64,000 nt of DNA from IMG/VR virus record IMGVR_UViG_3300013426_000025, positions 1 to 64,000 of that record; one strand, 5' to 3'. The notes under the pieces were generated by a model, which saw nothing but the letters and a program-made list of their open reading frames with translations, did no database searches and was not told the DNA's origin. The translations under genes were made by a program, and so were the position numbers. Shown in pieces: positions 20,173 to 50,591 of this stretch; positions within the stretch are counted from its first letter, which is position 1; every line of letters starts with the position of its first letter. Origin of the DNA: a virus. Its lineage: Duplodnaviria > Caudoviricetes.

Positions 20173-23100
20173 TTATCTTGTTAACTGATAATTTGGGTCA
20201 AACCATTTCACTAAAGTGTTATCACCTTCCATAAAGTTTCCAACATATCTATAATCTTTATACCATGGTACCGTTTTATATAGTACTTTATGTACATAAA
20301 CGTTTTCCCCAGCATACTTACCCGTTTCGTATTCTTTATCTAAATCACCTAAGCCTATAATAGGATATAATAATCCAGATGCAGTAGTAAGAGATGCTAC
20401 AGGGTTCTTTACAATATTTTTAGCCTCTGTAATAACACCCACAGGAGTTGCAGCAATTGCTTCAGTAGTTAATCTCTTTATAAGATATATATTAAATCTT
20501 GTAAACCAATCTTCATCTTCATAGTCATCTGAACCTCCTATTATAAGACTTGATAATGCTAATAACAATGCTAAAGTACCTAATTCATTCCAGAATTTTC
20601 TAATGTTTGCTCTTCTCATTCTTGCTAACTGAGCCTGCTGTTCTAATGACTTAAAGGCACTATCTGATAATGTTCTGTGCTCTTTTTCTCTGTTGTACTC
20701 ATCAATAACATCTTTCATTGCTCTAAAGGTAATTCTTGCTTTTGCACTCATCTTTTCAGCATCGTTAAATGTACCTTTAATGTAGTTCTTATAGGCAGTA
20801 ACCCACCATCCTTCTCTCCAAGTATCTGAAGTACCATCATAATGTAATGTTCTGTATCTTCTGGAGTAGTGCTCTACCATCCATTGCCTCATTTGCATAA
20901 CTAACCTACCAGTCATGTATTGAGATATGGCACCTCTTTCTTCTTGAGACATTGCGCCATGACACTCTTGGTTAGCCTGTCTTATTTTTCTTTTTACACC
21001 ATCAAAAAATTCATCATGTATATCTGTTAGTGGTTTACCCTCTAATGTTGTAACACCATCTACAAGTTCAAGTTCATTATTTCCGTCTACTTTATCTGAC
21101 TTTTTTAATGCTTTATATAAGGACTGCTCCTTACCATTAATGAGTACTTTTTCGTGATGAAGTATAGCATACATTACAGTATAGTGAATAAGATTTTCAC
21201 CCATTCCATACAATGCAAAAGCATTACTTTCTCTAAATAATTTTCTTGCTGGGTTATAATCAAATCTTTTTCTTCCTAAATCCTCATACTTATCACTAAT
21301 AGGGTCAAATCTGTTAGCAAGTAATGTCTCAAAAGAAGTAGTATTATTAAGTATTACATCCATCATCTTACCTGGAGCATTTGTTACTTTATTTCCAAAC
21401 ATAACACCTTGTGCCCATAATAAATCCCCTACATTCATATTCTCTCTTCCTAATGCTTCAAGTAACATCTGGTATTCACCTGCCATAGCATTAGAGGCAG
21501 CACCAAATACATTTGTAGACAATGTCCTTAGAGAAGTATAATTCATAAGAGATTTCAAATATTTAATATACCACTTATTAGCATTTTTTAATTTTATATT
21601 AAAATATTGAGTATCTAAAAGCCCTTCAACCAAACTTTGAGTGTTAGTGCCTTTAGCATGTTTGAAGAGTCTTTGTATGATAGTAGTTTTATAACTATTG
21701 ACTGTCTCTCCTGTACCTACATCAAATCTTTGCTCACTAATAGGTGTACTTGCTACAAAATCACCCATAAATCTTACTACATCTAATACCTTATTCATAC
21801 AATAGTAGTTTGTAGCAGTCCTAGCAAGATTTGATAGAGCACCTGAAAAATCTAAAAGTAACTCATCTTGGTTTACTTTTTTAGTATAGAATATAGGAAT
21901 TTGTTTTTTTACTGTATCATCTGCAACTCCTTCTACAGGCATAAACTTTTCATCATTAGCAAAGATTACATTTTTTGTAAGTACTTCCTCATCACCTTCT
22001 CTTTTCCAGTAGTTTTTAAACCTCTCCCAAATACTTTTAGGTAATTCTTTTAATGGAACATCTGATAATTCCCTTCTTACTTGAGGAGGCAGATACTGGT
22101 CTTGTGCATATTCAGGCAGTAAGGAACCAAGTTCTGCTTTAATTTGCATAATAGTATCGTAGTATTCTTTTTGTGCTTCATCCAAATGTGTAAAAGGATT
22201 ACCTTCTTCCCCATCTTCATATCTAAAATCATCAATAGGTACTCTCTCGGTTCTACCAGTCTTTTCATCAACTACAACTTCTTGAGTCATATTTTTATAA
22301 TCTTCTTCCATAGCGTCTTTTAACGCTTGACCATGTATTCCTCTTTTCATACATTCTTTTTTAAATGCTATTCTTGCTGCATTAAATGCTCCCCAATTAT
22401 AAGGACTTATAATAGTAGCATTACCGTCTTCATCCCAAGAATACATCCATTTAGTGTTAAAATGTCCTGCTTTTCTCAATTTATCTGTAGCCTTTTGTAT
22501 TCTTGCAGAGTAATCAGCCATCATTTGGTTTCTTTCATCTTGGGCTTTTCTTGTGATACCACCCATTGCTGCAATTATTGGGTTAGAACATCTTGAATAA
22601 GCAAATAAAAAATCCATTATAGAAGCGTCTTGTCTTGCTGCTGTAAGTAGAGTTGTAACATCTCTGCCATCAGGCATATTATCACCAAATATATCAGTAA
22701 GAATACCAAGCATTGTTGACTCTTTCATTACTTCAACATCTGCAACTTTCTTTCTAAGTTCATCGTATAAAGATTTTGCTTGATTGATGATACCTTCTTT
22801 CATATCAGGATTAATATCTTCATCTATAACTTTACTATCAAGAACTGACAATTCATCTAGTAACGATGAATAAGATTCAATGATAGAAGTTGCTTTCATA
22901 ACAGCAGCAGCCATATTGTAGTTATATTCTTTAGTTCCTTCTACGCCTTCTATATTATTAAGAACATCATCAATACTATTGATTTCATCAAGAACAGAAC
23001 CTAAAAATTTAAGTACACTACTTGCATATCTGTTTCCATTAATTTCATCTACCATTTCTTTAATGGTTTCCTTTAATTTATCAGTTTGCTCTTTGTCTAC

Positions 23101-24144
23101 TTTTGATTTAGACTCTAAATCTTTTAATTTCCTATTTAGTATAACAACTGCTTTGGCAGCAGCATCTGAAAGGCTTTTTATCTTTTGTCCTAACACAATA
23201 GTGCTTGTACTGTTAATACCATACTTTTTGTGTAATTCATTGATGGTTTTTAGTATACCTTTAGTTTCAGTATCTTCTTGGTTATTTTCAATATCCTTAT
23301 TTATCTCTGCTATTTTAGCACCATTATATTTTTTACCAGTATTAATAGAAGAGTCTAACAAAGACAGTGCTTGTGCTGTTAGAGGAGTTCCAATACCTTT
23401 AATATGATTATAATAAGCCTCTGCTGCACTCTTTAAAGAACCATACTTACTTATAAGTCTTGATTTTTGTTCATCTGATGCAAAGTTTAATAAAAGCTCT
23501 ACATCACCTTGCATTAATAAAAAGTTCTTTGTTTTTGCAAGAGATTCCATCCATGACAGAGATGATTTGATATTGGTAATATCAAACAAAGATGGGAAGT
23601 TTTGGATTAAGTCTTCAAAATCAATACCATATTTATTAAATGCTGCTTTAAGGTATTCAAGCGTTGATTTGGCTTTTTCCATAGACCTGTTTTTATAAAC
23701 AGTTTGAGAGTTTCTGTCTACTACACTAATACTATAACCAGTACCATTTTTATAAGCAAATGCTATAAATCCTTTTGAGTTACTATTATAGTCATTAACT
23801 CTATCTAATACTTCTTTACCGTCATCATATATGATTGTATTTCCACTTGTATCTTTTGCTCCTGCAAGTCTTTCTTGAGTATTTTTATTAACTCTTTCGT
23901 GAAGTATCTTTGATACTTCAAAAAATTTATAGACGTCTTGGGGAGAGTGTTCCCCAAGACTGTCTCTTTTATATCCAAGTGAGTCCATTTTCTCAGCAAC
24001 TCCTGGTTGAAGATATGCTGCATAAATATAATTCACTGTGTTTCTGTCACCCTTTAAGTTAGGATTATTAGCCAAGCCTTTATACAGATTACTTGGTTTG
24101 TTAGTATCTTTAACTTTGGGCCATAAAATACAACTATCTGCCAT
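20173..24144 (-). CDS. Large virion cargo/ejection protein (third of three giant genes)
   Basis: About 1323 aa, coiled coils and C-terminal hydrophobic helices; follows the vRNAP as in crAss-like phages; ATG 24144 (MADSC) preferred. Confidence 0.7.
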   Translation of the reverse strand: MADSCILWPKVKDTNKPSNLYKGLANNPNLKGDRNTVNYIYAAYLQPGVAEKMDSLGYKRDSLGEHSPQDVYKFFEVSKILHERVNKNTQERLAGAKDTSGNTIIYDDGKEVLDRVNDYNSNSKGFIAFAYKNGTGYSISVVDRNSQTVYKNRSMEKAKSTLEYLKAAFNKYGIDFEDLIQNFPSLFDITNIKSSLSWMESLAKTKNFLLMQGDVELLLNFASDEQKSRLISKYGSLKSAAEAYYNHIKGIGTPLTAQALSLLDSSINTGKKYNGAKIAEINKDIENNQEDTETKGILKTINELHKKYGINSTSTIVLGQKIKSLSDAAAKAVVILNRKLKDLESKSKVDKEQTDKLKETIKEMVDEINGNRYASSVLKFLGSVLDEINSIDDVLNNIEGVEGTKEYNYNMAAAVMKATSIIESYSSLLDELSVLDSKVIDEDINPDMKEGIINQAKSLYDELRKKVADVEVMKESTMLGILTDIFGDNMPDGRDVTTLLTAARQDASIMDFLFAYSRCSNPIIAAMGGITRKAQDERNQMMADYSARIQKATDKLRKAGHFNTKWMYSWDEDGNATIISPYNWGAFNAARIAFKKECMKRGIHGQALKDAMEEDYKNMTQEVVVDEKTGRTERVPIDDFRYEDGEEGNPFTHLDEAQKEYYDTIMQIKAELGSLLPEYAQDQYLPPQVRRELSDVPLKELPKSIWERFKNYWKREGDEEVLTKNVIFANDEKFMPVEGVADDTVKKQIPIFYTKKVNQDELLLDFSGALSNLARTATNYYCMNKVLDVVRFMGDFVASTPISEQRFDVGTGETVNSYKTTIIQRLFKHAKGTNTQSLVEGLLDTQYFNIKLKNANKWYIKYLKSLMNYTSLRTLSTNVFGAASNAMAGEYQMLLEALGRENMNVGDLLWAQGVMFGNKVTNAPGKMMDVILNNTTSFETLLANRFDPISDKYEDLGRKRFDYNPARKLFRESNAFALYGMGENLIHYTVMYAILHHEKVLINGKEQSLYKALKKSDKVDGNNELELVDGVTTLEGKPLTDIHDEFFDGVKRKIRQANQECHGAMSQEERGAISQYMTGRLVMQMRQWMVEHYSRRYRTLHYDGTSDTWREGWWVTAYKNYIKGTFNDAEKMSAKARITFRAMKDVIDEYNREKEHRTLSDSAFKSLEQQAQLARMRRANIRKFWNELGTLALLLALSSLIIGGSDDYEDEDWFTRFNIYLIKRLTTEAIAATPVGVITEAKNIVKNPVASLTTASGLLYPIIGLGDLDKEYETGKYAGENVYVHKVLYKTVPWYKDYRYVGNFMEGDNTLVKWFDPNYQLTR

Positions 24145-24146
24145 AA

Positions 24147-27100
24147 TTAACAATATTTTTTAGCCTGTTTTCTAATAGTAGCATCTGATATTTCCAGACC
24201 TTGCTCCTTTGCTATATTTTGAATCGTATCTAATATTTCTTTTTCTCTTTTTCCACTTTCTTTTGAAAGATTACTTTTTAAATCAATCATACCAATATCT
24301 TCCAAAGTTTTTAGTATTTTTGAGATTTGTGTTTCTTCATTTGTTTCTGCAACATTTTCAGAGTTGTCAATATCTTCAACTTCAGCATTTTGCTTATTTA
24401 TAATACCTGTTGGCTGTTCTTCTTCAGCAAAGTGTTCCCATGCTTCTTCCTCTTTCAGTACTTCAGCATCTTTTTCTTTAAGTGCAGAATTTTTAATTTC
24501 GTCTACACTCATTTCCATAAACTCTCCTTTATTACCTAGTTTTGTAAGAGGTGCAAATATTGCTCCTGTAATTCTTCTATTACTATAAACATCAGAGATT
24601 TTTTTCCACAAAGTATCATCGGCACTATTCACAAAGTATGGTAATTTATAATTAGCATGAAATAGCAAACCTTTTTCATCAGGTTCTGTTTTTACTTTCA
24701 CTCTTGGTACTATTGATTTGTCATGCCAATTATTTTGTACAAATTGGTCTAACATCACTGTATCGTCATATAATGAAAAATCGCCCCTAAAAGTAGTAAC
24801 ATATCCAGGTATCATCTCTTTAAGTTGTACAGGAAGCAAATTCATAAAGGTTTTAGGTGAAAATCCTATACCTCCTTTAAAGAAATTATATTTGAACAAA
24901 CTAATTGCAAGTTTTTTCCCTTCTTCTCCTGACTTGTACAAATCAATCCAAGCACTGCTAAGTTTATCCTTAACTGACTGGTCAAGACCTGTAGTATCAA
25001 TCCTTAAGAAAGGTCTACCACTATTACTGTCAGTATTTACTCTCATAGATTGTATAAGAAAGTTATCTTTAAATTTGTCCTTATACCCTCTCTTGATGAA
25101 GTATTTTGGAAATTGTTCTACAAAGGCACCACATTCACTATAATCAATGCATCCAGATTGTACAAGTAAATACGATTGGAAGAAATCACTAAGTTTACCA
25201 AATGCTTTTCTGTCTCTTAGTAACCTCTTCTTAAATGAATCTGGTATTCTATTAAACATTCTTCTGAAGGTATTACTATTGGCAGGCAATTTATTTCCAA
25301 ATAAATTCCTTGCTATACCAAGAGTTCTCATAAAATTATTTAATATAGGATGCATTTCTGCTACAGAATCTGCTGTTATAACAGTTTTACCATCCCCAAG
25401 TGTAACATAATCAGATGTATCTAATAATTTTTCTTCTGTAATAAGATTATCAAGAATCAATGGTCCTACAGCACTACTGATGGAATTAAACCTTGTAACA
25501 AATGAAGGCATTTTTAATTGCTGAGCCACTTTACTAAGTCTTGAATAAGCAAGTAAAATTTTGTAATTAATTTTATCATCTCCTTCTTTAATACTTTGTA
25601 TAATCTCTTCCCTTGTAAGAGGTTCATTGTCTATCTTTGAAGTGTCTCCTATTTTCTCAGCATATTTTTGTAACATTATATCTACAATGTTATTAAAATA
25701 AAGACTGGGGTTTTCAAGAGATTTAATACTATAGTTTTTTAGTGCTCTTGTTATAACATTAGAAGATAATAGTAAAGCAGCATCTTCAAATGGTAAACCC
25801 ATTCTGATAGCAGCATTTAGTACATTTACTGTATTAACGTTAATGTTCATAAGGTTTAGTATAGGGTCTTTTACAGCATCAGCCGCACTTGCTACCAAAC
25901 TACCTAATATCTTTCCTATATATTCTCCATTAATATTCTTCTGAGCATCAATCTCCATACCATTAATAAACTCAAGACCACAAATACTATATTTAATAGG
26001 ATTTTGATAGTCTAAATCGAATAATGCTTCAGCATTAAGCCTCAGGTAATTACTTTCAAGAGTTGCATGTGCTACTTTTGCTACAGCAAAAATAGATAGA
26101 ATAGAGCCTGCCACACTATTTTGTTTATAGAATTGAACGTGGGTATCTATGAAACTAAGGTTTTTCTCAGTGTAACAAGCCTCCTTTAAATCATAAATAC
26201 TCATTTTCTGTAAAGTGTCCCAATCATACCCCATTCTATATGCTTGTACCATATAGCCTGTTCTCTTCTGTTGGTCAAAACCTCCTGGATTAAGAAGTTT
26301 ATCGGTAGTGTCTTCATGTGTTAGTACACTTAAAGACATATCTATTATTTTATTATTTCTGTATCTTCTACCTTCTGTTGGTTTTTTAACTTCAAAAGCA
26401 ATTTTTCTATACTCTCTTGCTATATCAGGAAAAGTTGTCACTGCCTTTCTTTCATCTGTACCTATTTGATTTAAAAACATCTTAATATCATCACGTTTAG
26501 ACTTACCTAATTTGTCTATCAAAATGTCAGCAATTTCTTTATTTTTCTTTCTAAATATAGGTAAATCTTTACGCATAATATACATTTTGTCCACATCGTA
26601 GTCACTACCTGTAATTGTAGTAATCTCATAGGGCATCATAATACCCTCACCAGCTTCTCTTGGCATAAATCCTACGATCTTACAAGGAGCACAACTATAT
26701 TTATCCTCAGTAGGGATTCTATAAGTAACCAAATCAAGTAATTCTGGGCTTGTTGCTTCTACTGCTTTAATATCAATATTGCCATTTTCATCCATAAATT
26801 GTAACAATTCGTCACTATATATAGGAGCAAACACTTCATAATAAGCAACCCCTGCTTGGTTCTCTTTTACATATTCTTCATAAGACTGATTCTGTTTTGT
26901 TAATTCAGATAAAATATTGTCCCTAAAATTAAGTGCGTCATCATAACCTGTTTCCCCATCAAATTCCTTTACAGAACTTAATTCTATTGAATCAAATTTT
27001 CCAAAGTTTTCTATTGAATTGTCTGTCTTTAAAGACATAGCTGCAACTCCTTTTACTGATAGGTTAGGATTATTTTCTTTCCATTCCTTATATTCAGTTG

Positions 27101-30100: not shown

Positions 30101-33100
30101 TTAGATTATCATTACCATTTGCACCATCTCTGTCTTTATATCTAAACCAATCTATTTGCCCATACTCATCATTTAACCATTTATTAAAATCAGATAATTT
30201 TGTTGGGTCATTAGGGTCAATATTCCTTGATTTTCTAAAATTCTGAAACAACTTAGTAAGATATGAAGGTATTGTATAGGTTTGATACATTTTACCATTA
30301 GTATAGAACGAGGAAGGTATTGTATTCTCTATTTTATCTGTTATTGGTGTTATTAACTTTCCTATATTACCAATAATACCATTATCTGAAACTTTACCTG
30401 AAAAAGGATTCCATTTTTCATTCTTCTTATTCTTCTCTAATGCTTTTATAATATAACCTATAAGGTTGTTACTATTATGGAATACATCTTTATCAAGTAC
30501 TGATAGAACATCTTCTTTTACTGTAGGGTAACCCATACCAGATATTACCTGAGCAAGTTTATCTGCTATTTCTTCAGCAGTATCTGCTGAATATGTAGTA
30601 TGAGTAAGTTCATCATGCAGTTTTATAATCTCTTGTAAGGTTGCTTCATTAACAGAACCACTAGAAGTAAATAAAGGATGTTCTCCTATATTATATAATG
30701 CTGTAATAGCCCTTTTTGCATCACTTAAAGCAGGGGCTGAGTTAGCAGGAATACTTACTAAAGAACCGTCTGCATTTTTGATTATATCATATAATTGCAC
30801 ATATTTACTAAATACACCAAAGAACTGAGATTGAAATACTGTTTCATCTCCTGTTTTATCTTTTAATCTTGGAAGTATCTGTTTTAACCATGGGTTTTTA
30901 TCTGCCTGTGCTTCAAGTTTTTCTATCATAGTAGAAAGGTTAACACTTCCTTGTACCCATTTAAGAATACTATTTGTGCACTCTCTTGCATCAAGTCTGT
31001 CATATAAGCCCCATCTGTCAACTTTAAAAGAACCATCGGGGTTTGTTTTGTAACATTGCAATAATGCTTGTTTTACAATTTGAGACATACTTTGAAGTAC
31101 ATCTAAAGTTCTACTATCTACTTGCCAAGATTCTTGTGTATCTCCCTCAAGTTCTGCTACTGCATCTTTGTCTTCCTTATCTTCGTTAGGATTAAGTTCA
31201 GACATGTCTACTTCTTCTGCTTTAGCATTACCATTACTATCTATTTTAATTCCAAATCCTTCTACAGCAGCAAATTCTACTATACCTAATTGTATTAAAG
31301 CATCAAAATTATCATAGAGTAAGTCTGCTACATCATAGTCATCTTCTGTTATATTAGGATTTCTACCTTCTCCTGTTTCCTCATCTAATTCATAACTAAA
31401 TAACTCATCTCTACAAAAATTGATAACATTCCTAATACCTAATTTTTGAAGTAATTCAAGTCTTGACATACTATCTATATCTTCAAGGTCTTTTTCTGTA
31501 ACAAGACCATTAGTTACAGTAGCAGCAAGTCTTGGGTTCTGTTGTATTTGAGTTAAGGTATCAGATAATTTATATGTTACTTTTCTTGACAATTCATTTA
31601 CTTCAGAAGAAGTAATTGGAGAATTAGTATCAGTAAGACTATTTATCTGTTGTGTTAATCTGTCTTCTACAACTCCCTCATTAAATGTATCAAATTTTTG
31701 TTCCTCTTCATAATCAATCTTACTATCTTGTTCTTGTAAAGCATTATCTGATATAATATCTGCTTTCGTTCTATTATTAATGTAATTAATAGTGTTTAGC
31801 TGTTCTCTAGTAAAAGGTTTTCTTTCCTGTTTAAAAGCAACTGGAATAGTTTTTCTTACACTTATAAAAGCATGTTTTTGATTTGTTACGGGATAATGAA
31901 TACTAAAATTAGATATATCATCATCATTAGCAGCAATCAAAGGTCTAAAATCTTCTCTTATAAGGTTTTCAATATCCTTATGAGATAATTCACTTTTATA
32001 AATACTGACAGGAATTTCTATCTTGTATTCCCCATCTTCTTTTTTGAGGGTAAATCTCCTTAATCCTCTGTCCTTACTAATTCTGATTTGTTCTAATATA
32101 GATTCACGCCTTTTAACTAGAGCTTCTTCTATTTTTTCTCTTCCTTTTGTATAAGAAGAAGCATTGGATTCACCTATTTCACCCTTATCTATATGTAAAC
32201 TGATTGTAGATATTGCTTTTTCAAGGTAAGTACCATTAATGTCTTTACCCAAGTATTTAGATAAAAATTGCTTAAGTTTATTATACAACTTAGAAAGAAT
32301 TGAAGTCTTTTTATCTGTTTTTATATTAGACAAAGTGTCTTGTAATATAGGATTAGTCATCACATTGGCGATAAACTCTTTTACATGCTTTGCTCTCCCT
32401 TCTAAAGTATCAATGTTATAGCCGTAATCAATAAACAGATTATGGTTATTATTTAAATCTGTTATTATATCCCAAACATCATTTACAAATTTAGTTTCTT
32501 CTTTACTTCCTTTGTTTAATATAACATTATCTACAGCATTTGCTGTTACTGTATGTACTAATTCGTGTGCTATAATATAATCGATTCTCTTACTATCTAT
32601 AGATACAAGTTTAGGATTATAATTGAGATATACCACCTTACCTTGTATTCCCACATTCATTGTACTTTCAAGATTATCTACAGGAGTTATAGTAATTGAA
32701 TATCCTGTTTTCTCTAACTTATTAATAATTTGCTGAGACAATTCATTGACATAAGATTTCCTGTCAGTATTATCTTCAATGTTTGTAGTTATTTTTGAGG
32801 TAGGTTTTGTTTCTACACCACTATCAACATGATGTTTATTGTTGTACTCTTTTATAGAATTTTTGATTGCCTGCTTGAAATTATTAATACTTTGTGATAC
32901 AGAGCCTTTGTCTGTACTATAATTAGTATTTATATTTCTTCCTTGTAAAGTAGTTATCTCACTTTCGTAAAAATCCCTGTTAGCACTAATTTTTTCAGTA
33001 TTCAATACAGGTCTTGTGACAAGTACTTGATATTTGCCATCTTTAGTTTCTTTTATTATTACTGACCTTTTATCAAACCATTGTAGTGCTTCTGTATATT

Positions 33101-33395
33101 CTTTCTGTGCTTCTTGTAATGTGTCTTTTATAATAGGTTTGCTATAATTTTTATCCCAAAACTCAACAACTGTATTATCATAAACAGTAGATGCGGGGGC
33201 AAAATAATGCCCCTGCACATACTGTTCTGATGGGAAAGGTAGTTCACCTCTTTCAAATAATTCTTGATTTTCTGGTAAACTCTGATATTCTTGTAATATC
33301 AACTCTAAATCTCCAGAAGTCATATTAAACATATCAAGCATATCTTGATATTCTTTAGACTTCTTTTGTAAAGATGTTACACAATTTGTCTTCAT
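24147..33395 (-). CDS. Virion-packaged DNA-dependent RNA polymerase (crAss-type) with zincin and GNAT-like domains
   Basis: RIPTEDKYS and catalytic GSDYDVDK (DxDxD at 26589-26603); HELVH at 32553-32567; about 3082 aa from ATG 33395. Confidence 0.9.
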   Translation of the reverse strand: MKTNCVTSLQKKSKEYQDMLDMFNMTSGDLELILQEYQSLPENQELFERGELPFPSEQYVQGHYFAPASTVYDNTVVEFWDKNYSKPIIKDTLQEAQKEYTEALQWFDKRSVIIKETKDGKYQVLVTRPVLNTEKISANRDFYESEITTLQGRNINTNYSTDKGSVSQSINNFKQAIKNSIKEYNNKHHVDSGVETKPTSKITTNIEDNTDRKSYVNELSQQIINKLEKTGYSITITPVDNLESTMNVGIQGKVVYLNYNPKLVSIDSKRIDYIIAHELVHTVTANAVDNVILNKGSKEETKFVNDVWDIITDLNNNHNLFIDYGYNIDTLEGRAKHVKEFIANVMTNPILQDTLSNIKTDKKTSILSKLYNKLKQFLSKYLGKDINGTYLEKAISTISLHIDKGEIGESNASSYTKGREKIEEALVKRRESILEQIRISKDRGLRRFTLKKEDGEYKIEIPVSIYKSELSHKDIENLIREDFRPLIAANDDDISNFSIHYPVTNQKHAFISVRKTIPVAFKQERKPFTREQLNTINYINNRTKADIISDNALQEQDSKIDYEEEQKFDTFNEGVVEDRLTQQINSLTDTNSPITSSEVNELSRKVTYKLSDTLTQIQQNPRLAATVTNGLVTEKDLEDIDSMSRLELLQKLGIRNVINFCRDELFSYELDEETGEGRNPNITEDDYDVADLLYDNFDALIQLGIVEFAAVEGFGIKIDSNGNAKAEEVDMSELNPNEDKEDKDAVAELEGDTQESWQVDSRTLDVLQSMSQIVKQALLQCYKTNPDGSFKVDRWGLYDRLDARECTNSILKWVQGSVNLSTMIEKLEAQADKNPWLKQILPRLKDKTGDETVFQSQFFGVFSKYVQLYDIIKNADGSLVSIPANSAPALSDAKRAITALYNIGEHPLFTSSGSVNEATLQEIIKLHDELTHTTYSADTAEEIADKLAQVISGMGYPTVKEDVLSVLDKDVFHNSNNLIGYIIKALEKNKKNEKWNPFSGKVSDNGIIGNIGKLITPITDKIENTIPSSFYTNGKMYQTYTIPSYLTKLFQNFRKSRNIDPNDPTKLSDFNKWLNDEYGQIDWFRYKDRDGANGNDNLTRGWRNSMLQLLATDPEAARIFEHKVNLTFNGHGYMHSKGDKAMDDIECTLSILTEYWRETTKQSESLVPAWFRVPMLSNKPSSEFIKFYSYRGANYKNNITKALKLVFDQELSRIQTVKLRKENYSKGSDVLIKNFDTKRGDKFCFLDFIEKYRNNGSELGKLINDKVEGKEVNEAKLNKLALETIAKEMDLRADSILKEWKTNGTMEAAKRIKNIDVANIEESLRNFIWNDFLATTNISELLITDKAYYEDTEDEQKRMAQVHSPGIRANIEATDFDGKRVSDGRFRTIILKDFDSYKSNIIDNLRVIFDRKLAEMDGDDPNYIAAKETFDKIIESYEEVNVADAEGYSSPSSLRKKMFMFGKWDRHSEEIYKKLRSGDYKYQDLQFAFQPLKPFVFSSTVVSTRVEDAPLQNMKVNYQYKNSEYLLMMADAIISGENTGKPNLLGALYAVMEQSMTKGGYDKGIDTIQFESTTKAGLSAPLDLVPFLNMKDGTRAAIDYINDRIYKDGKYNDIYVHESDFTDYCIQQEVPEHFKNHEQAHGSQIRMIIPSDLNPNTTYSVEGRNLSAEEFRREYEETIAENIQDSIDQLARELNLTGTPLERNQALSAVLKREILSSPRYGVDLLLACSLNEDGEFRIPLGDPVQSKRVEQLINSIIKNRINKQKIAGGPVVQVSNFGTSRQLNIVFKDKNGKLLKTRSQFEKEKKKTSLKKASKPNPFKINWQKNIVKKEGTYNQVVIPKLSDELVQRYKHLINVDRVQVKLVDLSENQRALLQNKDKAKRDNFLTTYAVSEALNLLNDYAGVDIIEFGDLAYTLLSYTPDYLKPIVSEIVKDIIESDDKADSDVSRQVDLVSDALDKELSKRGIPSTKQPVKKASAVDFHNAIKSCKKENQNGWIVDVHEAADYENDLCLLTEDGKAGIAITKDGDIISVFSAVKHDHRLNKLMQMAIAAGGKKLDCYYISYSNDSGTVLGGLPVLYADFGFTADAVTPFNADYAPTEYKEWKENNPNLSVKGVAAMSLKTDNSIENFGKFDSIELSSVKEFDGETGYDDALNFRDNILSELTKQNQSYEEYVKENQAGVAYYEVFAPIYSDELLQFMDENGNIDIKAVEATSPELLDLVTYRIPTEDKYSCAPCKIVGFMPREAGEGIMMPYEITTITGSDYDVDKMYIMRKDLPIFRKKNKEIADILIDKLGKSKRDDIKMFLNQIGTDERKAVTTFPDIAREYRKIAFEVKKPTEGRRYRNNKIIDMSLSVLTHEDTTDKLLNPGGFDQQKRTGYMVQAYRMGYDWDTLQKMSIYDLKEACYTEKNLSFIDTHVQFYKQNSVAGSILSIFAVAKVAHATLESNYLRLNAEALFDLDYQNPIKYSICGLEFINGMEIDAQKNINGEYIGKILGSLVASAADAVKDPILNLMNINVNTVNVLNAAIRMGLPFEDAALLLSSNVITRALKNYSIKSLENPSLYFNNIVDIMLQKYAEKIGDTSKIDNEPLTREEIIQSIKEGDDKINYKILLAYSRLSKVAQQLKMPSFVTRFNSISSAVGPLILDNLITEEKLLDTSDYVTLGDGKTVITADSVAEMHPILNNFMRTLGIARNLFGNKLPANSNTFRRMFNRIPDSFKKRLLRDRKAFGKLSDFFQSYLLVQSGCIDYSECGAFVEQFPKYFIKRGYKDKFKDNFLIQSMRVNTDSNSGRPFLRIDTTGLDQSVKDKLSSAWIDLYKSGEEGKKLAISLFKYNFFKGGIGFSPKTFMNLLPVQLKEMIPGYVTTFRGDFSLYDDTVMLDQFVQNNWHDKSIVPRVKVKTEPDEKGLLFHANYKLPYFVNSADDTLWKKISDVYSNRRITGAIFAPLTKLGNKGEFMEMSVDEIKNSALKEKDAEVLKEEEAWEHFAEEEQPTGIINKQNAEVEDIDNSENVAETNEETQISKILKTLEDIGMIDLKSNLSKESGKREKEILDTIQNIAKEQGLEISDATIRKQAKKYC

Positions 33396-33397
33396 AT

Positions 33398-36300
33398 TTA
33401 TCTGCAATTTTCAATCATTTCTAACCACGTATCAATATTATTAATACCTTGTGTAAGAATTTTTTTACTTCTTAAAAAGGCTTCTTGGTCTTCCTGTTCT
33501 TTAGGTAAAGCATCTCCAAATTTTTTAGTTAAAACCTCTTTGACTCTCTTCCTATTTTCTTTATTTCTTATTATTCCTGCAAAGGTATGTAAATTATCTG
33601 AATTATGCAAGGTAGGAGATGATTTTTCTTCTATTTCATTAACATTTTTCTTAGATTTCCTCACTCTTTTAGGTTTTGGTTGTTCAGGCTCTTCTTCAAA
33701 AGATACAGAAGTTTGTACTGGAGCAGGTTTTTTATTATTATCCCTACTTTCTTTTGCATTAGGCTCTACAGTAGGTTCTGTTGTAGTATTTGAATTATTA
33801 TTTTCTTCAAAATCAAAATCCAATTGCTCCTTCTTACCTTCTGCCTCTATTTTTTCTTTTGCTTTTTCTGCTTGTTTTTTCTTTTCAATTCTATCTATAA
33901 CCTTCAAAGCATCTTCCCCTTTTAGTACTTTAACATGATTACCTTGGTCAAACTCTAAAACAAGAGGATTATTACTATCGGTATTCACAACATAAGCATC
34001 GTATACACCGTCTTTAATATCTGGTTTAATAGCAGGATTATCATTATATTGAACTACATAATCTACTCTTTGTATAGTTTCACTATCTGTAATTACTTTA
34101 TCATTTTCATCATAATAAACATTATCTATAATCCTATAAGTTTTACCATCAAGCAGTACTGTCTTACCTACTTTCTCTACTAATGCAGAACCTCTTCTTG
34201 CTTCTATTGGTCTTGCTTGTTGTACATTAATAGGTTTACCATCAGTATCTACATTATAAATATCAAAATAACTTCCTGCTGTACCAAGTAATGCTGCATC
34301 TGTTTGTAAAGCACCTGCTTCATCCATCATTTTCATTTCGTCAACATTCTTTATTGTTGAAGCAGTAAAATTCACTCTAAAACCGTTATCTACATTAAAG
34401 ATAGCATTTATCAGTGATTGTACTTCAGCACTTTGGTCGGCACTTGGTTTATCAAGATTTAACCTAAATACATCAACACCGTTTGCTCTGATAGTAATAT
34501 TATTTCTGTCCTTAGTACCAATAAATATGTTATTTGTATTGTCAAGGTTTATCCAGTGGCACAACTCTCTAACAGCATTATATCTTACAGCATGGTCAGT
34601 ATTATATAGCATTCTTATGGTTTCTATAAGATGGTCTTTGAGAGGACTGTCTTTAAGTTCACCGACTTTAGTAGGCTTAATTGCTATAGGGATATAGTCA
34701 CCATTGGAACTCTTAACGAGCATGAATAAGTTACCAGCATTACCTATATCGTCTCTTACAAGATTTACAGAGGCGTTGAGTGCTTTAGACATAACGTATT
34801 TAGTGGTCATCTGTATCATCCAAGGTATCTCATCAAACTGTACACCTAAAGGATTCCTTGTAGCATCATTAATAAGTTCTGACACACTTCTTATTGAGCT
34901 TTCTTCATCTGTTGCAAGTCTTTTAACAAGATTACCTGTAGCAATAAATTTAATCTTGCTCTTAAAGTAAGGGTATACCGTAAATCTATCATTTGCTCTA
35001 TCACCAACAAATGTGTGCATACCATGAGTATAGAAGGCAGGCAAAAATCTATTTCTAAATTCTTTTTCTTGGGCTGTAGGATTGTTTCTATCCTTACTAG
35101 ATATATAACCCATACTACCTATAACCAAGTAGTTTTTACCATCTGCTGTAATAACTCCTCCTTTTTTTCCACCATGTATCTTCTTTACAGCATCTGTATA
35201 TTCTACTACAAGTAATGGAATCTTTTCAAGACACGCATCATCTAACTCATTTGCCACAGGGTTTGTAATTACTACTTGTACATCAGGGTTTAATTCTCTA
35301 ATCCTTGCAAGTTCATAATCTACAATTTCCTGCATATTAATGCCCATATTATCACACCATTTAAAAAATCTACCCATTATATCTGTTTCACTTCTTGATT
35401 TTCTCAGAACTATAGTTTTAAATTTTCTAAGTGGTTCAATAACATATCTATAAAAAGGAAGCCCTAAGAAGGAACTTGCTTTATCTGCTTGAGAAGTTTC
35501 TCTATCAACATCTTCAATAGATGTAGGAAGATTAGTAGGCATACTTTGGACTTCTACACCTTTTGTTTGTACTTCCTCTTCTTCTGTAGGACTATTTACA
35601 CTTTCAGTAGTTTCAGTATGATTACTCTCTTCTACAGACTCAGATGTAGTTTCAGGTGTAGTAGGATCTTCTTTTGTAGGTTCTTCATTAGATTTAGTAC
35701 TTTCTTCTGGTTTTGTTTCATTAGATTTCTCAGTAGTTTTTATACTATTATCTTCATCACTAAAATCTATACTTTCTTGTTGTCCTTCTTTAACTGCTTT
35801 TTCTTTTTCTTCTTGAGTAGGCTCATATTCATCAACTTTAGGTTTTTCCTCTATTTGCTTCTTTTCCTCTTGTTTAGCCTTCTCTTCTTTTGCTTTATTT
35901 TCTTCTCTCTTTCTTTTTGCTTCTCTCTTCTGAACTTTTGTTGCACTTCTTTGATACCCTACTTGGTCAATACTATTAAGAATGTTATCAATCCAACTTT
36001 TAGTATTATTGTCTACATTAGGGTCATCAATTGCTCTTTCCAATGCAAGAATTGCATCTTTAGTTGTTTTTGCTGACTCTGTAATAATCATAACATTTCT
36101 TTTAATATTATCCTTACCTTGTTTTAGTATATCCCAAGTATCAATTATTTTATTAACTTCATCAAAAAATTTATTGTTTTCTATAGCATTGTATAATACA
36201 GTATTTCTTTTTGTATCTGCTGTACCATCAGGGTTAACAAAACCTATTTTAGATAGTTCTTCAAGTACACCTCTTGAAGCAGAGTTGAGTTTTTTATAAA

Positions 36301-39300
36301 AGTCAGCATTAATGGGAGTGGTAGATAGAACACTATGTAAAGTATTCGCCTGGTTTGATATTACCTTATCCCATAAAGAACGTAGCATTGCTTTCTTGTT
36401 ATAATCATTCAATTGCTCCAACTCTTGAGGTTTGCTAAGTATATACTTATAAGCCTCATTATTATATTCTATTTTATCTTGTAAGGTCTCAATATCTTCT
36501 AATTTACTTAAGTACTCAGGGTCTTTTTGTGCAAGCATATTTTCTGCTTTTTCTATTTCTTCCTCTTGTTCATAAGTATAGTTACTCTTTTTATGATGAA
36601 ACATATTATTTCTTTCATTTGCTGAAAGATTTAATATTTCTTCAGCAGTAAGTAGGGCAGGATTGTCGAGCATCTTTAAGGACTCTTGTAGCTCTTTTTT
36701 CTTTTTCTTAAAGTACTTTTCTCTTAAACCAGTTACTTTTTTGTTTTGTAATATGTCATCTATTTCTTTAATTCTTTCTCTAACTTGTTGCTCTCTTTCT
36801 TGTATACCTCTTTCAGTTAAAGCACCAACACCAGTATTAGTAGCATTGCCAGCAACACCCAGTTCTTTCTGCATCTGTTGTAATCTTTCTTGCCACTGTT
36901 GTCCCATTAAAGACATATAAGTAAGTTGGTTTTTTGCTTCCTTACTCATAGAATCTCCATATACAGAATTTAACATAGAAGACATTGACTTATAAGCTTC
37001 ATGTAACTTTAACATTTCTTGAGCATTTTTTTGTATTTGCTCTCTTGCTTCACTTACATTTGCTTCATTGGTGCCTTTCTTTAATCTCTTCTCATTAGCA
37101 GCAATATATTGTTGTATCTCTTCTTCTGTAATATTACCTTGTGCAGCCTCTTGGAGTTCTTGCATATATTGCTCTACAACTTCAGGGTGTTCTTGAGAAA
37201 GTTCTTCAGTATTGATTAAGAACTGAAATCCCATAGTAAAATGGTCATCTTTAGTGTTTTTCTTATCTCTTACTGCTTTATCATTTTCCATAGCAGACAA
37301 CATACTGAAAGCAGTCATAAGATTTTTATAATCTCCTGCATGCTCCTGCATGATTTTCTCTATTCTTGCTTGCTCTTCATTATGTTTTTTTCTTTCATTG
37401 TAAACTTCACCTATATCACTAAGAATAGGATTAAACAACATCTTATTGAGATTATCAATGGTACTGTTCTGTCTCCAATTTTTATATGTAGATGGGTCAA
37501 ACATGCCTACTTTAGGAGATGCTTGTAATAACGGTGCAACACCTCCAACAAATGCTTGTTGCCAAGTAGATGGGTCCATAGTAGCACCAGAAGCACCTTC
37601 TATATAAGATGTACTGAAATCAAATATGTTTTTAAAAACACTACTAACAGGACCAATAGTGCCTGTATTATAGAGATGTTGTAGATAATTATTACCCACA
37701 TCAAGACCTAACTGTTGAGAACCCTGGTTAACCATTTCATCAGTAAATTCATCTAATGCGCCACCAAATATAGAACCTCCTATCTTTTTAGTATAGTCAA
37801 ACCATGCAGCATGTTTACCTGCTTCTCCTAACTTAGAGAAAGGAGATTTATAGTATTTCCAGCCTGCCATTAATCTATCAGTAGGTAGATTCTTAAGCAT
37901 GTGAGATGCAAAAGTAGTATTAAAAGCAGTAAAAGCTGCTTCCTTTGCTGCCTCTTCTACTTTCTTTTTAACAAAGTTCTGATAATCTTTTGTATATTGC
38001 TGCCTTAACTCTTCTCTTCTTGCTGATGTAACATTAACTAAAGCATTAGTGTCTTCCCCAACTCTTTTCAAAACATCCCCATCAGGAAATTCTTTCCTAA
38101 TTTGTTCTTCTACAGCAGACTCAATTACGTTTCTTGCAAATTCTGGGTTACTAAATGCTTCTTCCATTCCTTTACTATAGACTTCATCATAAACAGCATC
38201 CCAGGCACTTCTTGCTTCTGATGCAGCCATAGGTATAGTATGTAGAGCATAATTACTTGCTTTAGCAACACCTTCTCCTGCTTCTGCTGCTAATTTTACT
38301 GCTTTTTGCGCTTTTACTCCTGCTTTTCCTGCTTGAGTAACAAGTTTTCTTTGCATTGCTTTCATAGGAGCACTTGCAGACTTGGTTACTGCCATTTCAA
38401 CAAGGGTTGGCATTAAATAACCAAGCATTTGAACACCTTCACCAAGTGTTTCTTTTGTGAACCATTTATATTCTTCACCAGCAGGTCTTATATGAGTATT
38501 AGCATTAACTAATCCCATTGTTTTTATTCTCTGTTGCTTTACAGGGTCAAATGTACCAGTATTTTGCCAATCTCCTATAAATTCTTGATTTAAAAGTAAA
38601 GGTGCTTTACTACCGTCTTTTTTTAGTCCCATGTGCCAATTTATGGCTTGTTGTTTTATATCATCATCAAATGCTGCTCCTAAATCAAGAGCAACTCCCC
38701 ATAAATCACTGGGTAATGCAACCACCATAGTTGCAGCATTTATTGCAATATTACTGGCATTAATTTCAAATCTTCTCCAACTAGTTCTTGTGTCATATAT
38801 ATTCCTTTTAACAGCATTTTCTACAAACTCAGCACCCATAGCATAATAGTAGGATGCCATTCTGTCATCCCCCTTTTCATGGGCTTCTTCTGCTAAAGAA
38901 GCAAATGAAGCATATTGAGACATTAGTTTAATTTTCTCAGAATCAGATAGTTTTAATTCACCATTTTCAGAAAATGTAGCATAATTAGGAAACAATACTT
39001 GACCAGTATCTTCATCTGTCCTAGTGAAGAAATCATCAATTTCATTAATGGTTTTTCTAGCACCATTAACTATATCACTATTCATTTGGTCAATATAGTA
39101 GTTCTCAAAAGATTCTGTAATCTGTTTATTTATAGGATTTTCTGCTTGTGTCTCAGCCTCAATAACTCTTGCATCTTGCATAAGCCTTTCCCTTTTTTTA
39201 TCTACAGCACCCAAGAAAGCAGCATCTGCATCTTCTTGAGACCGGTTAGCTACAGAAACACCACGACTCTGACTTAAAGACTGACCAATCCTTCCTAAAA

Positions 39301-39694
39301 GAGTAGGTTGTTCTTTTCTCTGTTCTTCTAATAACCTTTCTTTATCTTTTGCAAGTTCTTCTCTCTCTTTAGAAGTCATGTAGTCATTTTCTAAGAGATA
39401 TTTTATTGCCTCTGGTGTATACAGATCCTCAAAGTCACTTATATCTTCTTTGTATCTTCTATCAAATGCTTCTGCTATTGCTTGATTATTATAATAAGTA
39501 TCTCTTTGCTCAGCATCCATAGAGTTAAATACATCTTTTCCAAATTTATTTACAAATTGTTGGTTTTTGTAAACTCTATCTAACTGTTTGAAAGATTTAC
39601 TCCCTTTATAACCACTATCAAGTAAATGCTGTCTCCAGATAGAGTAATCCTCATTACTCATATCATTAACACCTTTTAAATATTCAATTCCCAT
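33398..39694 (-). CDS. Large virion cargo/ejection protein
   Basis: 2098 aa; Ala/Gly-rich hydrophobic N-terminal third, coiled coils and acidic linkers; precedes the vRNAP. Confidence 0.7.
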   Translation of the reverse strand: MGIEYLKGVNDMSNEDYSIWRQHLLDSGYKGSKSFKQLDRVYKNQQFVNKFGKDVFNSMDAEQRDTYYNNQAIAEAFDRRYKEDISDFEDLYTPEAIKYLLENDYMTSKEREELAKDKERLLEEQRKEQPTLLGRIGQSLSQSRGVSVANRSQEDADAAFLGAVDKKRERLMQDARVIEAETQAENPINKQITESFENYYIDQMNSDIVNGARKTINEIDDFFTRTDEDTGQVLFPNYATFSENGELKLSDSEKIKLMSQYASFASLAEEAHEKGDDRMASYYYAMGAEFVENAVKRNIYDTRTSWRRFEINASNIAINAATMVVALPSDLWGVALDLGAAFDDDIKQQAINWHMGLKKDGSKAPLLLNQEFIGDWQNTGTFDPVKQQRIKTMGLVNANTHIRPAGEEYKWFTKETLGEGVQMLGYLMPTLVEMAVTKSASAPMKAMQRKLVTQAGKAGVKAQKAVKLAAEAGEGVAKASNYALHTIPMAASEARSAWDAVYDEVYSKGMEEAFSNPEFARNVIESAVEEQIRKEFPDGDVLKRVGEDTNALVNVTSARREELRQQYTKDYQNFVKKKVEEAAKEAAFTAFNTTFASHMLKNLPTDRLMAGWKYYKSPFSKLGEAGKHAAWFDYTKKIGGSIFGGALDEFTDEMVNQGSQQLGLDVGNNYLQHLYNTGTIGPVSSVFKNIFDFSTSYIEGASGATMDPSTWQQAFVGGVAPLLQASPKVGMFDPSTYKNWRQNSTIDNLNKMLFNPILSDIGEVYNERKKHNEEQARIEKIMQEHAGDYKNLMTAFSMLSAMENDKAVRDKKNTKDDHFTMGFQFLINTEELSQEHPEVVEQYMQELQEAAQGNITEEEIQQYIAANEKRLKKGTNEANVSEAREQIQKNAQEMLKLHEAYKSMSSMLNSVYGDSMSKEAKNQLTYMSLMGQQWQERLQQMQKELGVAGNATNTGVGALTERGIQEREQQVRERIKEIDDILQNKKVTGLREKYFKKKKKELQESLKMLDNPALLTAEEILNLSANERNNMFHHKKSNYTYEQEEEIEKAENMLAQKDPEYLSKLEDIETLQDKIEYNNEAYKYILSKPQELEQLNDYNKKAMLRSLWDKVISNQANTLHSVLSTTPINADFYKKLNSASRGVLEELSKIGFVNPDGTADTKRNTVLYNAIENNKFFDEVNKIIDTWDILKQGKDNIKRNVMIITESAKTTKDAILALERAIDDPNVDNNTKSWIDNILNSIDQVGYQRSATKVQKREAKRKREENKAKEEKAKQEEKKQIEEKPKVDEYEPTQEEKEKAVKEGQQESIDFSDEDNSIKTTEKSNETKPEESTKSNEEPTKEDPTTPETTSESVEESNHTETTESVNSPTEEEEVQTKGVEVQSMPTNLPTSIEDVDRETSQADKASSFLGLPFYRYVIEPLRKFKTIVLRKSRSETDIMGRFFKWCDNMGINMQEIVDYELARIRELNPDVQVVITNPVANELDDACLEKIPLLVVEYTDAVKKIHGGKKGGVITADGKNYLVIGSMGYISSKDRNNPTAQEKEFRNRFLPAFYTHGMHTFVGDRANDRFTVYPYFKSKIKFIATGNLVKRLATDEESSIRSVSELINDATRNPLGVQFDEIPWMIQMTTKYVMSKALNASVNLVRDDIGNAGNLFMLVKSSNGDYIPIAIKPTKVGELKDSPLKDHLIETIRMLYNTDHAVRYNAVRELCHWINLDNTNNIFIGTKDRNNITIRANGVDVFRLNLDKPSADQSAEVQSLINAIFNVDNGFRVNFTASTIKNVDEMKMMDEAGALQTDAALLGTAGSYFDIYNVDTDGKPINVQQARPIEARRGSALVEKVGKTVLLDGKTYRIIDNVYYDENDKVITDSETIQRVDYVVQYNDNPAIKPDIKDGVYDAYVVNTDSNNPLVLEFDQGNHVKVLKGEDALKVIDRIEKKKQAEKAKEKIEAEGKKEQLDFDFEENNNSNTTTEPTVEPNAKESRDNNKKPAPVQTSVSFEEEPEQPKPKRVRKSKKNVNEIEEKSSPTLHNSDNLHTFAGIIRNKENRKRVKEVLTKKFGDALPKEQEDQEAFLRSKKILTQGINNIDTWLEMIENCR
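33580..33611 (-). promoter_or_regulatory. Bacteroidota-type promoter inside the upstream gene, ahead of the vRNAP
   Basis: CTTG-N20-TACCTTTG on the - strand. Confidence 0.65.
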
Positions 39695-39708: not shown

Positions 39709-41358
39709 TTATACTCCAGCGTCTGGGTCATAAAAATCTTCTTCAGTTTGTGTTACATCAGAAGCCAGAGTAGATTTTGTTGAACTCTTAGGTACTATTG
39801 CAATCTCATATTCACTCATATCACTATTGTAATACATATAATATTCAAAGTCATGTGGATTAGCCTCGCCAATTTGAGACTTAATGTATTTCTTAACATC
39901 TTCAGACTCTTCGTTCATTGTCTGTAATGTTAAATTAGTACTAGTTTTACCATTACTTATGGCCACATCATCCAATTTTCCACTTGTCAAATCCTCATAA
40001 GAAGTAATAATAGGATGTTCATCACGTTTAAATATCCAACCATGTGATTTTTTCAAATCTTTGGATTTTTCCACCACTCTTACAGAACCTTTCTTATCTC
40101 CACCTCTAACTGTAATAATTACAGCATTTTTAGAGAGTAAAGCAGCAGATGGTTTCTTCCTTTTTCTTCCTGTTACAGAATTAATATCATCACTTTTATC
40201 GTAAGTAACAATGTTATTATTTTCATCGAGTATTGGAACTCTTGTATATGGATTGTTTGTTATATAGTCTTTACCATTCTTGTTTTGAACAACATAAAGA
40301 TTATGCATTACAGGTTGTCCATTATCATCTCTTTGTAGTTTAGGAACAGTTTTTTCAACCCCATTTTCATCAGTATAAGTTTCAGTTTGCATATCGCTTT
40401 CTCTGCTGCCTGGTGTATCATCATAAGTGTATTCCCCAGTGTCAGGATTAATTGCTATATACACATCTTTACCGTCTTTATTTTTAGCAAGTACTCTATA
40501 AGAAAGAATTTGTAAGTCATCGTCTGTACCACTACCTGCAAGTTGTTTTTTATAATTAGCCTCATACAAATCCCAATTCTTGTTGCTTACAAGACTTGCA
40601 TCATCTACAATACCTTCTAAGATACCAGTTACAATTCTATCTCTAAGTTGGTCTTTTTGTGTATCTGTATATTGTCCATTGTTTATACCATAACTATCAT
40701 ACACTTGGTCAACTATTTGTGATAAGTTAGAACCTTCAGTACCTAAAGCAGTTAAAGCATCTTGAGTAGATGCACCTAATCTTCTCATCTCTAAGTATTG
40801 ACTACCAAATGCTTGTGCTTGTTGTAAAGTAATAGGCAATCTACTTGCATAAGCTTTACCTTCTTTAAAACCCGTATCTTCCAATTCTGATTGACTTACT
40901 GCTTTGTAAGTAGGATTAGGATTTTTCAGGAAGAAGTCTACACCAGCATTACTGAAATCGGTATCATAAACAAGGTCTCCTTTAGGATTATTTTTCCTTT
41001 GTTCGTCTGCCATACTTTTCCAAGTATTATATGCTTCTTTAATAGGAACAATATCTTCTGCAAATTGTCTTCTTAAATCCATAGCAGATTGTATATCTCT
41101 ATCTCTATTCCAACCTGTTGTTGCAAGATTATTAGCAGCCTCCTTTAATTGTTTTTGATAAGCATCATAAGTAGCATAGGCTTGCTCACTACCTTCCATT
41201 TCTGCTAATTTCTTTAAATCAGCAGTAGCATCTATCATATCTTGATACCTTTTCTCATAATCTTTATATGTCTGCACATAAGCAAGTCCTGGTCTTAAGT
41301 AATCTTCTACAGATGTAGGATTAAAAGTAGAACCTACATGAAATCCATATTTAGGCAT
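39709..41358 (-). CDS. Virion cargo protein (C2-like)
   Basis: N-terminal STFNP.S.EDYLRP motif; position between the C1-like gene and the giant cargo genes. Confidence 0.6.
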   Translation of the reverse strand: MPKYGFHVGSTFNPTSVEDYLRPGLAYVQTYKDYEKRYQDMIDATADLKKLAEMEGSEQAYATYDAYQKQLKEAANNLATTGWNRDRDIQSAMDLRRQFAEDIVPIKEAYNTWKSMADEQRKNNPKGDLVYDTDFSNAGVDFFLKNPNPTYKAVSQSELEDTGFKEGKAYASRLPITLQQAQAFGSQYLEMRRLGASTQDALTALGTEGSNLSQIVDQVYDSYGINNGQYTDTQKDQLRDRIVTGILEGIVDDASLVSNKNWDLYEANYKKQLAGSGTDDDLQILSYRVLAKNKDGKDVYIAINPDTGEYTYDDTPGSRESDMQTETYTDENGVEKTVPKLQRDDNGQPVMHNLYVVQNKNGKDYITNNPYTRVPILDENNNIVTYDKSDDINSVTGRKRKKPSAALLSKNAVIITVRGGDKKGSVRVVEKSKDLKKSHGWIFKRDEHPIITSYEDLTSGKLDDVAISNGKTSTNLTLQTMNEESEDVKKYIKSQIGEANPHDFEYYMYYNSDMSEYEIAIVPKSSTKSTLASDVTQTEEDFYDPDAGV

Positions 41359-45143: not shown

Positions 45144-45153
45144 AATTTATCAT

Positions 45154-50589: not shown

Positions 50590-50591
50590 AA

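Follow-up and report, generated by a model that had tools for sequence, protein, structure and literature searches.

We analysed 64,000 nucleotides (nt) of the crAss-like phage record IMGVR_UViG_3300013426_000025 (Caudoviricetes; positions 1 to 64,000 of that IMG/VR record), referred to below as the window, in which three neighbouring minus-strand genes, here named A, B and C, encode giant cargo proteins with a virion RNA polymerase in the middle position. The termini that face each other across the two junctions all carry a cysteine (Cys), the two outer ends of the series carry none, and the same arrangement recurs throughout the order Crassvirales as long as the proteins are separate chains; where relatives encode neighbouring proteins as one polypeptide, the Cys pair of that junction is missing. 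Judging from these comparisons of sequence, we consider it likely that A, B and C are tied head to tail by disulfides, one joining Cys2097 of A to Cys5 of B and the other joining Cys3082 of B to Cys5 of C.

Results

Cysteines occupy the four facing termini of the cargo proteins

The three genes and the four residues, each pair of which we refer to as a putative clasp, lie at the following positions of the window (aa, amino acids).

Gene A, 33398..39694 (protein 33401-39694), minus strand: 2098-aa cargo protein with 4 Cys, counterpart of crAss001 gp47 and phi14:2 gp67.
Gene B, 24147..33395, minus strand: 3082-aa virion RNA polymerase with 18 Cys; ATG at 33395-33393.
Gene C, 20173..24144, minus strand: 1323-aa cargo protein with 5 Cys, counterpart of crAss001 gp49 and phi14:2 gp65; ATG at 24144-24142.
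Cys2097 of A, codon 33404-33406, minus strand: second-last residue (...IENCR), proposed clasp partner of B Cys5.
Cys5 of B, 33381..33383, minus strand: in the start MKTNC, read from the sequence.
Cys3082 of B, 24150..24152, minus strand: last residue (...KKYC), proposed clasp partner of C Cys5.
Cys5 of C, 24130..24132, minus strand: in the start MADSC, which opens the motif M-x(1-9)-C-x-[LIVM]-x-P.

Read base by base, the window bears out what the first-pass annotation had seen in it: four junction-facing terminal Cys, outer ends without Cys (A starts MGIEYL... and C ends ...YQLTR) and intergenic gaps of exactly 2 nt at both A/B and B/C (TAA-AT-ATG and TAA-TT-ATG). Its Cys totals of 4, 18 and 5, guessed by eye, agree with the exact counts. 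The ATG starts were preferred over the upstream TTGs of the mechanical open reading frame (ORF) list because homologues begin MSC, MAC, MGDSC and the like. Given the Cys counts of the window, the chance of finding Cys in all four of the five-residue segments that face a junction is about 1.5e-7. The cargo 1 and cargo 2 proteins of the window contain no Cys at all, and its plus-strand genes average 2.25% Cys.

The terminal cysteines are conserved across Crassvirales

With a profile of C we collected 78 IMG/VR crAss loci including 10-kb flanks, which form 24 clusters at 70% identity of C. ORFs were called mechanically and classified by BLAST, the A-type ORFs being assigned against a reference set of window A, crAss001 gp47 and phi14:2 gp67. 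Cys stands at position 5-10 in all C ORFs with a complete N-terminus (76/76), at position 3-7 in all B orthologues with a complete N-terminus and at -1 to -9 of every B C-terminus. Of 52 A ORFs whose C-terminus is complete, 51 have Cys at -1 to -4; the one without it is the upstream part of an A that is split, in locus L057. None of the outer termini of the chain has a Cys in these 78 loci. Since they are conserved in relatives, the terminal Cys are not a product of chance. A wider sample came from an exhaustive profile search of 1.84 billion cluster representatives with the N-terminal half of C, which returned 1028 relatives; the tally of C termini rests on the best 150 of these (50%-identity cluster representatives). 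Cys was found within the first 12 residues in 145 of the 150, most commonly at position 5, and the five starts without Cys are truncated or mis-started gene calls. Just two of the 150 have a Cys within the last 12 residues of C.

This terminal placement stands out against an interior from which Cys is nearly absent, with interior frequencies of 0.02% in A, 0.21% in B and 0.15% in C compared to about 1% in the other ORFs of the same loci. In crAss001 and cr116_1 the Cys occupy the same four termini (in crAss001 these are gp47 C2339, gp50 C5 and C2404, and gp49 C5), and the terminal Cys is the sole Cys of crAss001 gp47 (2341 aa), of crAss001 gp49 (1349 aa) and of cr116_1 gp047 (2556 aa). The 5398 aa of phi14:2 gp67, gp66 and gp65 hold four Cys in total, namely C1797 of gp67 (its last residue), C3 and C2179 of gp66 and C3 of gp65. 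The rule is kept in reference phages of Steigviridae, Intestiviridae and Suoliviridae as well as in Flavobacterium phage FpV4. At the level of individual alignment columns, the C Cys is invariant in alignments A1 and A3 within the motif C-x-[LIVM]-x-P, the A Cys closes the conserved motif W[IL][DK][TM][IL]x[ND]C[RK], and over the last ~120 residues of alignment A2 no column but the C-terminal Cys of B is invariant.

A free terminus is the usual place for chemical modification sites, redox sensors and processing or degradation signals, and the Cys might serve such a role without linking anything. Nothing more specific speaks for this explanation, which we find very doubtful: signals of this kind are not expected solely on mutually facing ends and never on outer ends, no lipobox or signal peptide precedes the N-terminal Cys, the termini leave no space for split-intein fragments, and no Hint domain was found with Pfam. 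Two such candidates were rejected individually. In a lipobox, L-x-x-C comes after a signal peptide that has a hydrophobic core; the N-terminal Cys considered here stand at positions 3-10 after polar residues (MKTN, MADS, MS). A split intein needs an N-intein of ~100 aa that starts with Cys and a C-intein of ~35 aa that ends in HN before Cys, Ser or Thr; the Cys lie 1-10 residues from the chain ends and Pfam reported neither a Hint nor an intein domain, and trans-splicing was dismissed on these grounds.

Two further features of these proteins became apparent in the loci. A orthologues (L003-L080) share a conserved G-L-[RK]-G-L motif in their first ~12 residues, where window A reads MGIEYLKGV; the motif could serve the entire chain as a signal for packaging or for contact with the portal. 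The giant cargo genes of Suoliviridae (L089, L098-L102) contain tens of in-frame stops under translation table 11 (127 in cr7_1), which fits a reassignment of stop codons in late genes; the rule of terminal Cys is intact there.

Cysteine pairs are present at chain breaks and absent from fused junctions

A, B and C are reported to be fused into a polyprotein in some phages (bioRxiv 10.1101/2020.03.07.982082). We found all four architectures, that is three separate proteins, A next to a B-C fusion, an A-B fusion next to C, and a fully fused A-B-C chain. Two Cys pairs are present when all three proteins are separate. B-C fusions occur in the Intestiviridae p-crAssphage ZA, crAss002, cr271_1, cr3_1, cr11_1 and ctbg_1 and in the metagenomic proteins P0016 to P0019. 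Next to such fusions A keeps its Cys at -1 to -3 and the fusion begins MSC, MKC or MIC, and no Cys pair is found near the estimated B/C junction, which was located in P0013 by a hidden Markov model of the N-terminal half of C and elsewhere from BLAST offsets accurate to ~100-200 aa. A-B fusions were found in the Suoliviridae cr50_1, cr1_1, cr7_1, cr4_1, cr53_1, cr113_1, cr6_1 and cr56_1 and in FpV4. Every one of them ends with Cys at -1 to -4, and the separate C begins MQC, MIC, MFC, MAC, MYKC or similar. The A-B fusions whose start lies inside the fetched locus (cr50_1, cr113_1 and FpV4) have no N-terminal Cys, and no Cys occurs within ±250 aa of the estimated positions of their A/B junctions; the 4287-aa fusion of FpV4 has a single Cys, at -2. 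Two fully fused chains, P0015 (4488 aa) and P0020 (4572 aa), contain no Cys whatsoever; before each of them, Cys-free proteins take the places of cargo 1 and cargo 2. P0015 and phi14:2 gp67 have homologous N-termini.

The Cys pair sits exactly at the chain breaks and nowhere else, and the residual exceptions, which are taken up in the Discussion, are minor. The first-pass annotation had named conservation in orthologues and co-occurrence across adjacent genes as checks on its proposal. The former holds across the order; as to the latter, facing Cys co-occur and vanish together at fused junctions.

These architectures also bear on two explanations in which the facing Cys do not form disulfides with each other. 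A metal ion (Zn, Cu(I) or Fe) might bridge each pair, or the three-protein form might assemble one shared site from all four Cys. The split forms carry exactly four terminal Cys, the number used by a tetrahedral Zn site, and such a site would assemble in the reducing cytoplasm without an oxidation step. However, exactly two Cys remain where one junction is fused and none where both are, so that the unit is the pair per break; moreover, no conserved His, Asp or second Cys was found near the terminal Cys in alignments A2, A3 and A4, and the one solved analogue, in cyanopodophage A4 (see below), is a disulfide. We therefore regard a metal bridge as unlikely, and the single shared four-Cys site was rejected as a general solution because one-fusion forms retain just two Cys.

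Alternatively, each terminal Cys might bind something other than the neighbouring cargo protein, for instance a second copy of its own protein, a different cargo protein, the portal or the inner capsid. The pre-ejectosome of phage A4 is indeed a multi-layered assembly on the portal, and FpV4 encodes a 598-aa protein with a sole Cys at position 5. Other partners would leave unexplained why both facing Cys vanish on fusion while the other pair stays and why Cys never occur on the outer termini, and the cargo 1 and cargo 2 proteins of the window offer no Cys to bind; this makes the explanation quite improbable in our view. The FpV4 protein in question (L096:54-1850) is encoded two genes upstream of the A-B fusion and starts MKKKC. 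The protein that precedes it ends KVSER, with no Cys in its last five residues.

Several observations were made on the fusion proteins themselves. The B-C fusions P0013 and P0014 contain seven Cys within ~70 residues (residues ~900-975) and a PF08902 domain in their N-terminal part, in a family that is otherwise Cys-poor. The annotated starts of the B-C fusions of p-crAssphage ZA (L086:9858) and crAss002 (L087:10172) are probably too far upstream, and the MSC start typical of the family is obtained from the first ATG of ZA and from an internal one of crAss002.

The pattern is independent of gene layout and absent from intron breaks

The Cys rule holds where A is convergent to B-C, as in crAss001 and cr116_1, and equally in L023-type loci, where A follows C on the same strand. 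In the complete genome that holds locus L033, B lies ~20 kb from C and on the other strand, and yet it ends ...HKYC. An artefact of translational coupling was rejected since the pattern persists with genes that are convergent or far apart. For the same reason the first-pass annotation's idea of a chain in gene order could not be upheld: the order of the chain follows protein identity, with A convergent or placed after C and B up to ~20 kb away. The cargo block has been rearranged repeatedly among relatives (L003-L080, L094), with A convergent, after C, or upstream on the other strand. The L033 genome, with its B far from C, has terminal repeats.

A further kind of break is provided by group I introns in B, recognised by Rfam RF00028 with 54 bits in L056 and as two sub-threshold halves of 35 and 32 bits in cr116_1. 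No Cys pair is present at the intron-interrupted B junctions of L056 and cr116_1; these breaks are healed at the RNA level. The introns are located at L001:16100-16950 in cr116_1 and at L056:5686-5929. The two intron halves of cr116_1 lie on either side of a 215-aa homing-endonuclease ORF, and the exons are annotated as separate proteins. Group I introns in B were also found in L014, L024, L049, L051, L059, L062, L072 and L078.

Identity and surroundings of the cargo block

B matches phi14:2 gp66, which is PDB 6VR4 chain A (phmmer, E 5.9e-16), and this places it among the two-barrel virion RNA polymerases; tblastn gave matches to crAss001 gp50 and to other annotated crAss RNA polymerases. The nearest named relative is cr116_1 (Steigviridae), with 45-51% protein identity in B. 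Alignment A1 matches C from end to end with crAss001 gp49 and cr116_1 gp048. A direct BLAST match of window A to crAss001 gp47 or phi14:2 gp67 was not obtained, and we assigned it to the gp47 type because it follows cargo 2 and shares the C-terminal motif. PHROGs contributed no useful family for A, B or C, and a megablast of the B region against the phage collection gave zero matches. Orthologues in crAss001 and phi14:2 have been detected in virions by mass spectrometry (PMC10172136; bioRxiv 10.1101/2020.03.07.982082), and by orthology A, B and C of this phage would be packaged and ejected as well. The only Pfam match in the three proteins was a weak, sub-threshold one of B residues 139-286 (window 32538-32981) to a YgjP-like zincin metallopeptidase (PF01863, E 2e-4). 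A zincin protease domain is annotated in the A-type or the C-type protein of other crAss phages, and this domain may therefore sit on different sides of the breaks.

The block is embedded in a crAss-like structural module: just upstream of it, Pfam recognises the major capsid protein, the muzzle, cargo 1 and cargo 2 (PF23898, PF25731/PF25729, PF25725 and PF25712, all above cut-offs). Of these, the cargo pair adjoins the chain and is given here as context only.

Cargo 2 (549 aa) and cargo 1 (614 aa), 39709..43195, minus strand: upstream of the chain, Pfam PF25712 and PF25725, Cys-free.

Further upstream (43308-50595) the muzzle profile matches only via its C-terminal third, in a 611-aa ORF that is preceded by a 1813-aa ORF, and the muzzle protein may be split or extended.

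Structure models of the termini

The first-pass annotation had expected short helical terminal domains that dock pairwise. At the C-terminus of A the helical part of this expectation stood up, as a small helical domain was modelled there.

C-terminal helical mini-domain of A (last ~63 aa), 33401..33589, minus strand: carried on a ~65-aa disordered linker and ending ...WLEMIENCR.

AlphaFold2 (AF2) run on alignment A4 gave a predicted local distance difference test (pLDDT) score of 91-96 for residues 188-248 of the last 250 residues of A, with the Cys as residue 249 right after the last helix. The expectation failed at the N-terminus of C, whose Cys is the first ordered residue of a large folded domain: in the AF2 model of C residues 1-600 (mean pLDDT 81), the first four residues are disordered and the confidently folded part begins with Cys5. 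The C-terminus of B follows an acidic, poorly conserved linker. For the last 150 aa of B (alignment A2) together with the first 600 aa of C (alignment A3), a complex prediction reached 0.23, below the mark of 0.32, a result that counts neither for nor against binding. Foldseek of the C 1-600 model against the PDB returned nothing at E <= 0.001, and VIA-align, run wide with the same model, returned only generic helical bundles (CorA, spectrin; Z 7-9).

A solved precedent in cyanopodophage A4 and a single-chain counterpart in N4-like phages

We asked how the proposed clasps compare with known ejection systems. In the cryo-electron microscopy structure of cyanopodophage A4 (Anabaena phage A-4L), the C-terminal helix of gp27 lies in a cleft of gp26 and is held by a disulfide between Cys1715 and Cys5 (PNAS 2025, PMC12002296). 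According to the A-4L genome, these two are the sole Cys of the 1717-aa and 1114-aa proteins, and gp26 begins MSKHC. Phage A4 thus resembles the crAss-like phages in having a giant capsid-packed protein with its sole Cys 3 residues from the C-terminus, followed by a gene product with its sole Cys at position 5, and the start MSKHC is similar to the crAss starts MSKRC, MAKKC and MADSC. The window shows the same combination of a Cys near the upstream C-terminus with one at about position 5 of the downstream protein, and the Cys depletion of the phage A4 proteins is found in the crAss proteins as well, though only partially in the window. BLAST detected no sequence similarity between phage A4 gp27/gp26 and crAss A, B or C (E > 0.1), and no phage A4 chain was among the Foldseek and VIA-align results for one model, C residues 1-600. 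On sequence grounds, the parallel would be a likeness of design without detectable descent.

The two systems also differ. In phage A4 a single clasp connects two proteins of a pentameric pre-ejectosome, which lacks an RNA polymerase, whereas two clasps would flank the RNA polymerase in crAss-like phages. In addition, the comparison of split and fused crAss forms suggests that a peptide bond can be replaced by a clasp. The authors of the A4 study call the bond stabilising and not thread-forming (PMC12002296).

N4-like phages (Schitoviridae) likewise pack a giant polymerase into the virion and eject it via the tail, and their ejected proteins are Cys-suppressed (PMC11445570, PMC13434306). In contrast to the crAss-like phages, which usually have two or three chains with Cys only at the breaks, N4-type phages have essentially no Cys and a virion RNA polymerase that is a single chain of 3500 aa. 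The existence of this single-chain polymerase and of fused crAss forms indicates that one continuous chain is workable for this cargo.

Discussion

Our analysis argues for a chain in which the separate cargo proteins of crAss-like phages are joined at their facing ends. Each break in the chain has one Cys on either side, the first within 1-9 residues of the C-terminus of the preceding protein and the second at position 3-10 of the following one. This points towards a pairwise link, of which a disulfide is the most parsimonious form. Because the Cys lie within ~10 residues of the chain ends, the joined product would stay thread-like and linear. A, B and C would then act in the virion as one linear pseudo-polyprotein of ~6500 aa, which would be co-packaged 1:1:1 and pass unfolded through the narrow portal and tail channel, before the reducing cytoplasm of the host would cut the disulfides and set the three proteins free. 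Two properties of crAss001 virions are relevant here, as the portal barrel narrows to ~25 Å and structural disulfides are present in the tail and portal vertex (PMC10172136). Threading or ordered ejection with reductive release is an attractive idea, and co-packaging in a fixed stoichiometry would be an equally simple benefit. In p-crAssphage ZA, two putative thioredoxin genes (L086:24305-25584) lie in the early region beside the cargo block and may bear on thiol-disulfide chemistry in infection.

Several points weigh against a disulfide-linked chain. Since the hosts are anaerobic and live in a reducing gut, the thiols may become oxidised only after release, or during purification. We infer the disulfide chemistry in crAss-like phages, the docking of the termini and the roles in packaging, ejection and release. 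The window itself is less clean than its relatives, with 3, 16 and 4 interior Cys in A, B and C, respectively. A lone Cys3385 lies near the fused junction of P0013 and P0014, in a CNIQNI sequence that resembles the N-terminal motif of C, and is probably the vestige of a recent fusion. In crAss002 a lone Cys is found at about +209 aa from the estimated junction. Finally, B in L018 and A in L057 are apparently split without Cys; these splits are probably frameshifts or introns, and close relatives of L018 carry an intact B.

A broader reading, which we hold at slightly less than an even chance, is that the clasps rejoin split genes after translation. They would turn two or three giant proteins into a thread like the polyprotein of the fused relatives or the single chain of N4. 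Such a thread would be packaged in one piece and drawn through the tail in a set order, and reduction in the host cytoplasm, instead of a protease, would cut it. The placement of Cys shared with phages A4 and FpV4 would, according to this broader reading, be a general rule of podophage ejection proteins.

The first-pass annotation had also known of no description of such a linkage. This can be kept for the Crassvirales: neither full-text searches nor the crAss001 atlas, the phi14:2 study (as the preprint rather than the Nature version), a review of Crassvirales from 2023 and the N4-type studies of 2024 and 2026 yielded a description of terminal Cys or of a covalent A-B-C link. It cannot be kept in general, as a disulfide between a Cys at -3 and a Cys5 of successive ejection proteins is known from phage A4 (PMC12002296). 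What appears to be new here is the chain with two clasps around the polymerase, its order-wide occurrence and the apparent ability of the clasps to replace peptide bonds.

No viruses are more abundant in the human gut than the crAss-like phages, and the way in which they store and deliver a polymerase cargo of ~700 kDa still calls for an explanation. In the crAss001 atlas these cargo proteins could not be resolved (PMC10172136), and the 2026 N4 study asks for structures of them (PMC13434306). On a practical level, the rule that Cys occur only at facing termini locates true start codons (MSC in p-crAssphage and crAss002) and protein boundaries, and it tells splits at the protein level from genes that are interrupted by introns. 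If the end-to-end tether is real, it would explain the fixed packing stoichiometry of the three proteins and the free tolerance of gene fusion and fission in the cargo block, and it would predict both the order of ejection and a redox trigger of release.

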